A DNA stretch of 32,000 nt from Promethearchaeota archaeon (lineage in GTDB: Archaea; Asgardarchaeota; Lokiarchaeia; Sigyniarchaeales; SOKP01): positions 120,001 through 152,000 of the forward strand of contig JAUWGH010000002.1 in assembly GCA_030606485.1 (NCBI GenBank), written 5' to 3'. The notes beneath the pieces were generated by a model. That model was not told the DNA's origin and did not search any database. It saw only the letters and a list, made by a program, of their open reading frames with translations. Every line of letters starts with the position of its first letter. Within the stretch, counting starts at the first letter, position 1. A program made the translations under genes and the position numbers. Positions 8,379 through 11,710 of this stretch are shown piece by piece.

Positions 8379-9506
8379 CTACAATAAATTTTCCGGAATG
8401 CCATTATTGTAATATTGCTCCCGTGTAACCCAATTTGCTGAAAATTCAGGAATCATTCCTAATATTGAACCACCAATCCAAACCGAAAACATGCGTTCTT
8501 TAGGAGCAATTATTTTAACAATTTGTATTTTCTTTTTCTTTTTAGCTAAAAGTAATTCTAATTCTTTATAGAGTCTAGACTTAAAATTAGGAAACATTGA
8601 TGAACCCCCGGAAAGAAAAATATTGTTTAATAATTTTGGTCTAATATCTATATCACAATCTTCTATACATTCTAAAATAGCTTCATGTAATGGAGTAACT
8701 TCTAAATTATAAAGTGATGGATTAAAGATTAATTCAGGGATTAAAAATCTAAGACTATCAATCTCTAAGATTTCACCATCTGGTAATGAAAACGGTTTTC
8801 TATATTCTTCATAACGTTTCATATCTTCCTTAAAATCCAATGAAACAAAGCATGCTTTTTCTTTGATAACTCGGATAATTTGTTTCTTAACAGATGAATC
8901 AGCAGTAAATCCTGCTTGTTTCAATTGGTGTTCCATAAATTCAGTAATCAAATTGCCCCCTAGGTCTAATATTTTAATAGCATGTGATAACTGAAAACCT
9001 TCATAAACTGGGACAATTCGAGTGCTGCTATCTCCAATCTCAATAATTAAACCCGTTTGAAACCCGCCAGAATAAAGCGTCAGAAGTGAATCTAAAACTG
9101 GATAAAAACTAGCACAATTAAATTCTTCTAAAAAGATATCAAATACTTTTCTTTTATCTTGTTTTGGACTTAAAGGATGGACAGCATATAATACATTACT
9201 TACAATCGGATCAACACGTAGATTATAAAATATATATTCAAGAATTTTTTTATAATAATTCCAATCTTGAATTCTACCATTTTGTATTGGGTGAAAGAGC
9301 TTATACAACCCCATTGCATCTTGAATTTCATTACCTATGCAAAGGTCACTAATTTTTTCTCCATATGTAAGATCTACATTTTGATATTTTGGTACTCCAA
9401 CCAAAGTAAAAAAAACACTATTCGGATGATCTTCACCGGCAAAACCAATTTTTGTTGAAAATTGTCCTATGTCCATGATTAATGTTACGTTTCCCATTAT
9501 TGTCAC
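8379..9506 (-). CDS. Actin-related protein (Asgard actin/ARP family, divergent)
   Basis: Collinear with actin over 375 aa: DIGQFSTKIGFAGEDHPNSVF, LTLYSGGFQTGLIIEIGDSSTRIVPVYEG, KEKACFVSLDF, SLPDG, FLSGGSSMFP, APKERMFSVWIGGSILG. Alternative start ATG at 9497. Confidence 0.95.
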   Translation of the reverse strand: MTIMGNVTLIMDIGQFSTKIGFAGEDHPNSVFFTLVGVPKYQNVDLTYGEKISDLCIGNEIQDAMGLYKLFHPIQNGRIQDWNYYKKILEYIFYNLRVDPIVSNVLYAVHPLSPKQDKRKVFDIFLEEFNCASFYPVLDSLLTLYSGGFQTGLIIEIGDSSTRIVPVYEGFQLSHAIKILDLGGNLITEFMEHQLKQAGFTADSSVKKQIIRVIKEKACFVSLDFKEDMKRYEEYRKPFSLPDGEILEIDSLRFLIPELIFNPSLYNLEVTPLHEAILECIEDCDIDIRPKLLNNIFLSGGSSMFPNFKSRLYKELELLLAKKKKKIQIVKIIAPKERMFSVWIGGSILGMIPEFSANWVTREQYYNNGIPENLL

Positions 9507-9560
9507 TTACTCTTTTAATTATTTAAATTAATTGAAGCACATATCTAATTTGTCCTTTTT

Positions 9561-10307
9561 TTAACCCAATAATATCCTTAATGGTACATATGTAGTTTCG
9601 GGAATATAAGCCTCCCCATACCTTGAATTTATTTCATTACCTCTTAATATAGCGGTATCTTCTGCCCAATCTAAAACGCGAGAGAGTACTTCTTTTTGTG
9701 ATATATAAACTTGATTAAATATTTCTTTTTTCTTTTCCCAATATTCTTCAATATCTACGATAATAAAAACTGAACTTTCAATATATTGAAATTTGCAGGA
9801 AGGACTCTCATAATAATAAACACCATTTGGCATCCAAGATCGTTCATGTCCTCCATATGCTTTGCCAGTACAACAGTGATATATTGCCTCCCGAGAAATA
9901 AAGGACAAATTTCGGTGCACTCGATGAAAATCAGTGTGATGAGGTATTAGGATTAAATGAGGCTTATAATCTCGAATCAAATTTGTAATATGAGATATTT
10001 TCGAACGATTTATTTCTAAAGAAGTATATTCTAACTCTATAAATTCACATCTTAAAATTTCTGATAATTTTTTCAATTCATTTTCTCTTTCAGTTGAGAT
10101 GGTATCTTCTTGTTCTTTCTTAGCATAACCTCCTAATCCAGAAGTAGCAACAACAACACAAATTTCAGAGCCCATTTCCAAGTATTTTAGGAGTGTTCCT
10201 CCGCAACTTACTATCTCATCATCCGGATGTCCGGCAAAAACCATAATTCGCTTAGGAACAACAATTGGAACTTCATCTTCACAGATAATAAAACGCTTTT
10301 CTGGCAT
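9561..10307 (-). CDS. PIG-L/LmbE family (BshB1-like) deacetylase
   Basis: AGHPDDEIVSCGGTL motif, TSGLGG, RENELKK, PHHTDFHRVH, C-terminal YGEAY. Confidence 0.85.
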   Translation of the reverse strand: MPEKRFIICEDEVPIVVPKRIMVFAGHPDDEIVSCGGTLLKYLEMGSEICVVVATSGLGGYAKKEQEDTISTERENELKKLSEILRCEFIELEYTSLEINRSKISHITNLIRDYKPHLILIPHHTDFHRVHRNLSFISREAIYHCCTGKAYGGHERSWMPNGVYYYESPSCKFQYIESSVFIIVDIEEYWEKKKEIFNQVYISQKEVLSRVLDWAEDTAILRGNEINSRYGEAYIPETTYVPLRILLG

Positions 10308-10483
10308 ATAATATAATTTTCTTGACGTAATATTAAAAATTTATTAAAAGAAACACTCTCAGATTAATAAAATAATAGTTAAAAACTTAATTGGAAGAAA
10401 ATTTTTGAATTGCAACAACTTCTTAAATTCAAGTTAAAGTATCTATTATAAGATTATCTCATTATAAAATTAAATAATAAGTA

Positions 10484-11164
10484 TTAATCTCCGCGCATAA
10501 TCTTTTTTAAACGATTTAATTCATCTAACATTTCATCTCTTAAAGTACTTAAACTTCCACCCGCTTGAGATGCTACAGCTGGAGCAGGTGTAGCTGGGGT
10601 TATTCCAAGAGATGGTGCTGCAGGGGGTCCGGCACGTTTTACAAATGAGGGGGCTGAAACTACTGCACCAGACTTAGCAGGTGGTCCTGCTTTTCCTGGA
10701 GCTGGCGGTAATTTTGGTGGGGGAGGTAAATTTTTTGAAGGCGGTCCTGATTTAGCAGGTGGTCCAGCTTTTGTAGGCGGTCCAGCTTTTGTAGGTGGTC
10801 CAGCTTTTCTAGGTGGGCCTGGTCTTTTTGGCGGTCCTGATATAAGTGCAGATGGTGTTGCTGCAGCTGCTGTAGCGGAAGGAGTTTTTGCGCCACCTCC
10901 ACCCAATAAAGCGAATAAAGTAGTTGCGGCTTGAGTTTTTGCAATACCACCAGTTTCTATTTCCGGAGTTAGTTTTACTGAAGAAGAACTAACTGTTTTT
11001 CCTTTAACAACTTTTACTCCTTTAATATCATTCTCTGCTTTTTTCAAGGATTTACCAAAGTCATTTATTTGATCAACTGTATCTTGTAAAACTTCAGATA
11101 AATCACCTAAACTTTTTCGTAGATACTTGATAACCCGTGTAATTGTTTTCTCATCAGAAGGCAA
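10484..11164 (-). CDS. Proline-rich protein: N-terminal amphipathic helix/coiled coil, xGPPxK repeats, C-terminal WH2-like helix-LKKI
   Basis: TTG start with an upstream SD-like GAGTGA; architecture read directly from the translation. Function is inferred only. Confidence 0.75.
   Translation of the reverse strand: MPSDEKTITRVIKYLRKSLGDLSEVLQDTVDQINDFGKSLKKAENDIKGVKVVKGKTVSSSSVKLTPEIETGGIAKTQAATTLFALLGGGGAKTPSATAAAATPSALISGPPKRPGPPRKAGPPTKAGPPTKAGPPAKSGPPSKNLPPPPKLPPAPGKAGPPAKSGAVVSAPSFVKRAGPPAAPSLGITPATPAPAVASQAGGSLSTLRDEMLDELNRLKKIMRGD
10733..10840 (-). repeat. Six tandem imperfect 18-bp repeats encoding SGPPKR-PGPPRK-AGPPTK-AGPPTK-AGPPAK-SGPPSK
   Basis: Plus strand shows repeated ggtccagcttttgtagg units; 108 bp = 6 x 18. 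Confidence 0.9.
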
Positions 11165-11434: not shown

Positions 11435-11710
11435 TTACGCCGATTGAAGCTGAAAGAGTATTGAAGCGTGAGGTATGAAAAATCTATCCTTAGATTTAAT
11501 TACAACTGTGTGGAAATACTCAGCTAGACCTAAAAACCCTCTTATAACAGATTCATCTTCTTCAAAGGTAAATCTTACACTCGCTATCGCTGATTTTCCA
11601 GAAAAACTAACGTCTTCATAAACCCGCTCATCAATTAATGGAATCTTGAGTTCGTTTACAATTTCATAAACACGTTTGATAAATAATTCTTTTTTAGGCA
11701 AGATTTTCAC
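11435..11710 (-). CDS. Small hypothetical protein (91 aa)
   Basis: Coding-like ORF in otherwise extremely AT-rich flanks; no family recognised. Confidence 0.65.
   Translation of the reverse strand: MKILPKKELFIKRVYEIVNELKIPLIDERVYEDVSFSGKSAIASVRFTFEEDESVIRGFLGLAEYFHTVVIKSKDRFFIPHASILFQLQSA

Follow-up and report, generated by a model that had tools for sequence, protein, structure and literature searches.

This study concerns a 32,000-nucleotide stretch of DNA from a Promethearchaeota archaeon (contig JAUWGH010000002.1, positions 120,001 to 152,000), referred to below as the window, and in particular a gene on its minus strand (10484-11164) that encodes a proline-rich protein of 226 residues, designated PRP (Pro-rich tether protein, after the role proposed below). 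An earlier note on the same DNA had singled out this gene together with an actin-related gene, ARP, about 1 kb away on the same strand; the open reading frames (ORFs) bear out its coordinates and features, and the gap between the two genes is 978 bp. The window copy of PRP starts with TTG, while its homologs begin MPSDEK with ATG. Full-length homologs (n = 155) span 200-247 residues and all come from Asgard metagenome-assembled genomes; the window's own genome holds a single copy. Searches of PRP against Pfam and NCBIfam assigned it to no family, and no informative family emerged when PRP, its parts and the transmembrane variants described below were compared with Pfam, NCBIfam and the ESM Atlas. 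PRP is a genuine gene, and it represents a protein family that had not been described.

An AlphaFold2 model built on a 30-sequence alignment gives the protein a simple architecture: a helix at residues 3-48, a disordered middle and a second helix at residues 205-223 (predicted local distance difference test, pLDDT, ~95). The first helix, 46 residues long (11021-11158, minus strand, as are all window features given below; pLDDT ~92), has heptad-spaced hydrophobic residues and contains many positions that are invariant in A1, a 30-sequence alignment of PRP homologs. From this heptad pattern it is presumed to be a coiled-coil or oligomerisation base, and the model agrees with the amphipathic or coiled-coil helix that had previously been read there. 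Beyond it lies the motif AKTxAAxTLFxLLxG (residues 75-89, 10898-10942), identified in A1 and modelled with low confidence as a helix at residues 75-87, of which distant lineages retain the form [DE]x[LV][FW]xx[LF]xxG. A disordered, Pro-rich linker of about 115 residues then carries several conserved short motifs. Six GPPxK(x) units (residues 110-144, 10733-10837) are encoded by a DNA repeat with an 18-bp period (4.7 copies at 10733-10816, by Tandem Repeats Finder), and their number differs among homologs, as indels in A1 show. They are followed by LPPPPKLPP (residues 146-154, 10703-10729), which takes the invariant form LPPxPKLPP in the Loki-type family, with L146, P147, P148, P150, L152, P153 and P154 invariant in A1; the earlier note had described both elements correctly. 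Further conserved elements are TVSxSS and PSFxKRxGPP, the latter present here as the linear motif PSFVKRAGPP (residues 172-181, 10622-10651), in which P172 and K176 are invariant in A1 and F174, R177, P180 and P181 are conserved in at least 90% of sequences.

The best-conserved part of PRP is its C-terminal tail (residues 204-226, 10487-10555), a putative docking helix. The run LRDEMLDELNRLKKI, with which the earlier note had the helix end, occupies exactly residues 208-222 (10499-10543). In A1 the last 22 residues are near-invariant: the commonest residue has a mean frequency of 0.94 there and of 0.58 in the linker. Across diverse lineages the tail follows the consensus [ILV]SxLRxEM[LM]xE[LMI]xR[LI][KR]x[ILF][MFI], and L208, M212, E215 and R218 are invariant throughout the phylum. 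A profile hidden Markov model (HMM) made from 18 diverse tails (A5) matches 257 of 301 Asgard genomes, including 85 of the 90 of high quality, mostly with one match per genome and with exactly one in the window's own; in the loci inspected, the tail stands at the C-terminus of its ORF. On a helical wheel, L205, L208, R209, E211, M212, L213, E215, L216, R218, L219, K220, I222 and M223 make up a conserved arc of about 220 degrees that includes the charged residues E211, E215, R218 and K220, and the variable positions are 206, 207, 210, 214, 217, 221 and 224. Docking, rather than service as a mere spacer, is favoured because the tail is so much better conserved than the linker (0.94 versus 0.58) and because its charged residues are conserved. 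So wide a conserved face would fit a helix buried in the groove of a partner, and from this face, together with the phylum-wide occurrence of the tail, we infer a conserved partner common to nearly all Asgard archaea.

Judged by its sequence distribution, the tail helix is the defining and portable element of the family. An exhaustive search with the tail HMM against 1.84 billion cluster representatives returned only 83 clusters, and the proteins that carry the tail are of several distinct types. Families f1 (the window's own GTDB family), f2, f3, f4, f5, f10, f14, f21 and f23 have a cytosolic type with an N-terminal helix, as in PRP. In families f7, f9, f15, f17 and f18 a single transmembrane helix is followed by a coiled-coil segment, a Pro-rich linker and the tail, and in f24 the tail is carried by multipass proteins of about 560 residues. 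A word-based search for longer fused forms had found none, but the exhaustive HMM search did uncover fusions. In two proteins (P0244, P0309) a Ras/Roc-type GTPase leads through a Pro-rich stretch to a single or doubled tail motif and then to a zinc ribbon, a third (P0306) is a GTPase with a terminal tail motif, P0249 and P0310 have two tail motifs followed by a zinc ribbon and an uncharacterised domain, and P0243 has three tandem tail motifs at its N-terminus.

Several features of these carriers may be recorded in their own right. The GTPase fusion P0244 is encoded at L224:957-2006, and its zinc ribbon, of the pattern CxxC...CCxC, belongs to no Pfam family; the same ribbon also comes after the two tail motifs in P0249 and P0310 (L225:8001-9092). 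Proteins of 91 residues encoded beside P0244 were considered as copies of small91, a conserved neighbour of PRP described below, and proved not to be. In the Asgard protein P0243 (344 residues, L226:8001-9035) the motifs are spaced about 40 residues apart and precede a helical domain without an assigned family, and the gene adjoins a Rad51/RadA-like gene. One metagenomic protein of 549 residues (P0282) reads as a transmembrane helix leading into a complete Loki-type PRP and, at the C-terminus, a TIR domain (Pfam TIR_2, E 6e-18); its parts may be genuinely fused or may have been joined by an error of gene calling. The transmembrane-type tail genes lie directly beside the gene for ribose-5-phosphate isomerase A (rpiA) in 11 of 11 loci (L043-L058, for example L043:4119-5932), most of which are also near PIN-ATPase(-KH), tRNA splicing endonuclease and eIF-2B family genes, and housekeeping synteny of this rpiA type is kept across several Asgard families.

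The neighbour of PRP that is kept more widely is small91 (11435-11710), a conserved Asgard protein of 91 residues with 385 homologs and no Pfam assignment. Its AlphaFold2 model is confident (pLDDT 90.3), and comparison of the fold by Foldseek against the PDB, by VIA-align wide and against the atlas gave nothing clear, with a best Z of 4.4 and uninformative TM-score matches. A weak small91-like match in an ORF of 619 residues was set aside as chance, that protein being an FAD flavoprotein which shares only an ELKIP(L/M) strand. The small91 gene adjoins the tail gene in eight families (f1, f2, f3, f4, f5, f14, f21 and f23; for f2 this is one genome, L055, with the genes about 3 kb apart), in divergent, convergent or tandem orientation. 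It turned up in all the families that carry the cytosolic protein (f1, f2, f3, f4, f5, f10, f14, f21 and f23) and was not found in the transmembrane-type families f7 (0/28), f15, f16, f17, f18, f24 (0/21) and f29. Since the tail helix is common to lineages that lack small91, small91 would seem to be tied to the N-terminal part of PRP, and we infer that it works with that part and not with the tail. Two observations weigh against this association: small91 co-occurs with a transmembrane-type protein in the genus g53 (f9), and adjacency can be passive synteny, as the constant placement of the transmembrane-type genes beside rpiA and housekeeping genes illustrates. The two groups of families may, moreover, represent two clades, in which case the independent events are few.

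On the other side of PRP lies ARP (8379-9506), a protein of 375 residues that matches Pfam Actin over its full length (297 bits, E 1.7e-88; residues 8-369 on profile positions 6-401 of 410), which places it in the actin family. Its best PDB matches are actins, at ~290-300 bits, and it retains the length of actin and a segment of the size of the D-loop. The window's genome has four actin-family genes, the best of which scores 445 bits and lies on contig C6. If a canonical Lokiactin is taken to be 70% or more identical to the Lokiactins of the whole phylum and to keep the catalytic residues Q137 and H161, ARP does not qualify: it is 42-43% identical to the genome's own Lokiactin (contig C6, 228916-230055), and it has D in place of Q137 and R in place of H161. 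Low identity and the changes at Q137 and H161 therefore identify ARP as a paralog. Relative to the genome's Lokiactin, G158/V159 is replaced by S/S, and the barbed-end cleft is altered as well (R147F, T148Q, K350P, T351E and M355N).

Between PRP and ARP stands a gene that the earlier note, otherwise right about the pair, did not mention. This gene (9561-10307) encodes a deacetylase of the PIG-L/LmbE family (PF02585, E 7e-21) and is an optional insert. Thirty f1 loci were viewed with 1.5-kb flanks, and in the order small91-PRP-(PIG-L)-ARP they contain ARP in 27 cases, PIG-L in 24 and small91 in 26; in the 6 loci without PIG-L, PRP directly precedes ARP. The same order is seen on three longer f1 contigs, and the block persists even though flanking genes differ between genera and small91 is flipped in strand. 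One f1 genome has an 80-residue remnant of PIG-L between PRP and ARP (L012:1137-1376), which suggests that PIG-L has been lost from the block where PRP directly precedes ARP. Within the window itself, both small91 and the PRP gene are followed by AT-rich intergenic DNA that contains T-runs, and PRP may therefore possess a promoter of its own. A spacer of 176 bp separates PRP from the PIG-L gene, and in it, just downstream of the stop codon of PRP, a 16-bp tandem repeat, AAATTATCTATTATA, occurs in 2.4 copies (10436-10472). The G+C content of the window climbs to 0.37 at the Pro-rich repeat of PRP, compared with ~0.25-0.30 around it, and shadow ORFs overlap this repeat in other frames (96 residues, 10660-10950, minus strand; in genome G316, 230 residues, L207:7381-8073, plus strand), which we regard as by-products because the GGNCCN repeat is G+C-rich.

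The linkage between PRP and ARP, which the earlier note proposed to follow across Asgard genomes, thus holds within f1 (27/30 loci) and disappears outside it. In two f2 genomes, distances of 44 kb and 71 kb separate PRP from the ARP orthologs, which are 49-54% identical, and in a further f2 genome (G316) the likely ortholog, which is the second-best actin-family match, is about 273 kb away. No actin gene occurs within 8 kb of the tail gene in f4, f5, f14 or f21, and no ARP ortholog was found in the probed genomes of f4, f5 and f14; with five genomes outside f1 probed, orthologs were found in f1 and f2 only. Genome G013, of 1.4 Mb and with a single actin, still encodes a tail protein. Adjacency to ARP is therefore a family-level feature, a later and lineage-specific arrangement in the Lokiarchaeial family f1, and the PRP family predates the ARP paralog. 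Since the tail is phylum-wide (257/301 genomes), ARP orthologs are seen in f1 and f2 only and G013 has a single actin, ARP is not the general target of the tail; the suggestion that PRP acts on its neighbouring ARP describes at most a partnership that is not obligatory.

Taken together, these results suggest, with a probability that we place at about 55%, that PRP is the cytosolic version of a tether protein, spread across the Asgard archaea and usually single-copy, whose tail docks with a conserved partner. In such a tether, the base would fix the protein in place, either through oligomerisation of the N-terminal helix, perhaps with the participation of small91, or through membrane insertion. 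The polyproline-II arm would serve as a long, flexible spacer bearing secondary ligand motifs, and the tail helix, burying about 220 degrees of its surface, would dock in a groove on some conserved protein of the cytosol that nearly all Asgard archaea possess. The tether would thereby recruit or concentrate that partner at a particular site. As to the identity of the partner, a Lokiactin-type actin is the leading candidate, put forward tentatively, with the tail lying in its groove as an all-helical ligand, as arcadin-2 and ParR do in theirs, and not as a WH2 motif; an MIT domain, for instance the one in Vps4, is a doubtful candidate, self-association or another coiled coil is doubtful to a similar degree, and the partner may quite possibly be something else.

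Precedents for such an arrangement are found in two prokaryotic systems, to which the likeness is one of architecture. In arcadin-2, the regulator of crenactin in Pyrobaculum, and in the ParR-ParM pair, a helix at the extreme C-terminus is the sole contact and lies in a hydrophobic groove of an actin-fold protein; for arcadin-2, the last 17 residues form the helix that binds the hydrophobic groove of crenactin, with a Kd of 31 nM, and the gene stands beside that of its actin (PMC5173319), much as PRP stands beside an actin paralog in f1. Unlike PRP and its relatives, arcadin-2 has neither a long Pro-rich arm nor transmembrane-anchored versions, and outside f1, PRP is not next to an actin gene. 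The comparison is by analogy, without any claim of sequence similarity, and binding of the tail to actin is putative. The transmembrane versions of the family, for their part, resemble tethers of the ZipA type, in which an N-terminal transmembrane helix, a charged helical segment and a long Pro-rich linker lead to a C-terminal partner-binding element (putative in the present case). ZipA differs in ending with a globular FtsZ-binding domain rather than a 20-residue helix, and there is no homology between the two.

Evidence for actin as the partner comes from both gene order and phyletic distribution. The f1 block small91-PRP-(PIG-L)-ARP is kept while its flanks differ, and canonical Lokiactin and the tail occur together. 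Wherever actin was sampled in a tail-bearing family, an actin with 70% or higher identity to Lokiactin was present, and the tail was not found in f19 (0/5), f22 (0/7) or f13 (0/1), whose sole actin shows 52-54% identity to Lokiactin along with altered residues in the cleft. Family f22 encodes three ESCRT-III genes and Vps4 without the tail, which leans towards actin. Covariation of the tail with the cleft was also considered. The f19, f22 and f13 actins differ at positions 145, 148, 350 and 351, and this yields no specific signal because those actins are only ~53% identical overall.

A number of observations weigh against actin as the partner. The number of independent lineages behind the phyletic link to Lokiactin is perhaps one to three, and f8 and f11 (one genome each) combine a near-canonical actin with the lack of a tail. 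A co-immunoprecipitation with the Lokiactin of L. ossiferum has been published, and profilin, gelsolins and an ARF GTPase are the only proteins that its authors list as enriched (PMC13716822). Its table (preprint 10.1101/2025.11.30.690169, Supplemental Table 2), searched by predicted mass, has no row at 29.08, 26.80 or 26.43 kDa, the masses for the three possible starts of the PRP ortholog (genome G316, contig C1:729367-730239). The ortholog was placed only approximately among the gene identifiers of that table (~GNAMCCOK_0062x), by collinearity with Lokiactin, and the negative is a weak one because the identifiers are mapped uncertainly and a GPPK-rich protein gives few tryptic peptides. Finally, the nearest PDB sequence matches to the tail, none of them significant, are the ends of GCN4 leucine zippers (of the type E[VI]ARLKKL[VI]G), and the tail could be a simple zipper.

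This last reading, in which the tail is a short leucine zipper that pairs with itself, with the N-terminal helix (giving autoinhibition or looping) or with some other coiled coil, draws on the heptad spacing of the tail hydrophobics and the coiled-coil-like character of the N-terminal helix as well as on the GCN4 matches. We nevertheless consider it unlikely. Nineteen residues are short for a stable zipper, and the charged residues E215 and R218 are invariant across classes of carrier, which is unusual for e/g positions. The same tail, furthermore, is found on unrelated N-terminal parts, namely the cytosolic helix, the transmembrane anchors and the GTPase, so that pairing with the protein's own N-terminus is disfavoured.

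About as doubtful is an assignment to the ESCRT machinery, according to which the tail would be MIM1-like and LPPxPKLPP MIM2-like, and PRP would bring Vps4, by way of its MIT domain, or some other MIT protein to a particular site or membrane. ESCRT-III tails with MIM1 or MIM2 (IST1, CHMP1-3) indeed share with PRP an arrangement in which an amphipathic helix comes after a Pro-rich stretch and forms the very C-terminus, as the PRP tail does. The two ESCRT-III proteins of the window's genome end in LxxE[LI]xxLK[KE], in the same register as MxxELxxLKK of the tail, so that the hydrophobic register and the terminal Lys match, and Asgard Vps2-class subunits are reported to have Leu-rich, MIM1-like C-terminal helices (PMC7240154). 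A Vps4 with an MIT domain is encoded in the genome together with weaker, MIT-like matches below the Pfam cut-off, and multivalent tails would suit a hexameric ATPase. Two of the sub-threshold matches, a 209-residue ORF with a C-terminal CxxC zinc-ribbon-like motif (contig C10:346823-347449, minus strand; 22.8 against a cut-off of 30 bits) and a 344-residue coiled-coil protein (contig C7:33206-34237, minus strand; 28.9 bits), both in the window's genome (G000), are possible alternative receptors for helical motifs.

The MIM1 consensus is (D/E)xxLxxRLxxL(K/R) in a C-terminal helix. In PRP, M212, L216, L219 and K220 fit this register, but the arginine position is taken by the invariant glutamate E215, and R209 occupies the first acidic position. 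PRP lacks a Snf7 core: it has no Snf7 match in Pfam, and the two Snf7 proteins of the genome are encoded elsewhere. The tail HMM misses ESCRT-III tails, every other match to it in the genome having E>2, and the phyletic pattern of the tail does not track Vps4, since f22 (0/7) and f8 have ESCRT-III and Vps4 without it. No ESCRT gene was seen near the tail gene in more than 50 loci inspected, and in the GTPase fusions the motif is internal.

It is improbable that PRP is what the earlier note had made of it, a minimal nucleation or elongation factor of the WH2 type whose helix and LKK would sit in the barbed-end cleft of ARP or Lokiactin. The general shape of a nucleation-promoting factor (NPF), with a coiled-coil base, a Pro-rich tract and a terminal amphipathic helix, was correctly perceived. 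Eukaryotic WH2 regulators (WASP/WAVE, WIP, Ena/VASP) likewise place first a helix that oligomerises or forms complexes, next a proline-rich tract of basic character, and then a short amphipathic helix with Leu-Lys after it. The same-strand block with ARP in f1, the conservation of L219 and K/R220 and the tandem tail motifs of some proteins, which recall tandem-WH2 nucleators, would all be in keeping with such a factor, and Asgard gelsolins bear WH2-like LKKT motifs, so that the requisite actin surface exists (PMC9433394).

The details of the tail speak otherwise. The Pfam WH2 model (PF02205) gave no hmmscan match to the whole of PRP at E<=1, or to residues 180-226 and 60-226 at E<=10. The WH2 motif was reportedly described by Chereau et al. 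in 2005 as an amphipathic helix, a linker of about 5-8 residues and an extended LKK[TV]. In PRP the gap between L216 and L219 is 2 residues, the helix-to-LKK linker being 3 residues shorter than in a canonical WH2, as had been conceded from the outset, and the modelled helix is continuous from 205 to 223 (pLDDT ~95). The 3.6-residue period of conservation runs through L219, K220, I222 and M223, and LKKI is therefore part of the helix and not extended. Among 21 diverse tails, position 219 is L or I and 220 is K or R, while 221, which lies on the solvent face, may be K, E, A, R, S or G. A lack of conservation of LKK among orthologs, which the earlier note had named as a result that would count against its proposal, is hence half true: L and the first K/R are conserved, and the second K is not. 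In contrast to eukaryotic WH2 regulators, PRP lacks an acidic tail for binding Arp2/3, and Pfam detected neither an EVH1 domain nor EVH2, the region of Ena/VASP with G- and F-actin-binding sites, anywhere in the protein. The ARP cleft differs from that of Lokiactin (T148Q, K350P, T351E, M355N), most tail-bearing lineages are without ARP, and the Loki profilins tested are reported not to bind polyproline (PMC8410842). In sum, what the earlier note observed is confirmed and its interpretation is partly supported.

Least probable of all is that the tail binds membranes, like the amphipathic helices of MinD or FtsA, and so places the scaffold on one, for although the tail is C-terminal, amphipathic and basic in its second half, it contains four acidic residues, two of them conserved, its 220-degree conserved arc is wider than a lipid-facing stripe, and the same tail ends proteins already anchored by one to many transmembrane helices.

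To our knowledge, profilins and gelsolins are the sole actin regulators demonstrated so far in Asgard archaea, and we know of no established mechanism for the nucleation of Lokiactin filaments, their anchoring to membranes or their linkage to small GTPases. Near-universal, usually single-copy and strongly conserved, the PRP family is a strong and unexplored candidate for a hub adaptor, in which a base, a polyproline arm and a putative docking helix are combined and the helix is reused on membrane anchors and Ras-like GTPases. A bolder proposal, somewhat on the unlikely side, is that the tail is an all-helical ligand of the hydrophobic groove of Lokiactin, akin to arcadin-2 or ParR and not to WH2, and the family the first dedicated, phylum-wide tether or assembly factor for Asgard actin. 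If this is true, Loki/Odin-type lineages would have the tether as an oligomeric protein of the cytosol, other lineages would anchor it in the membrane and some would connect it to Ras-like GTPases, and it would represent a pre-eukaryotic way of coupling actin to membranes and signalling.

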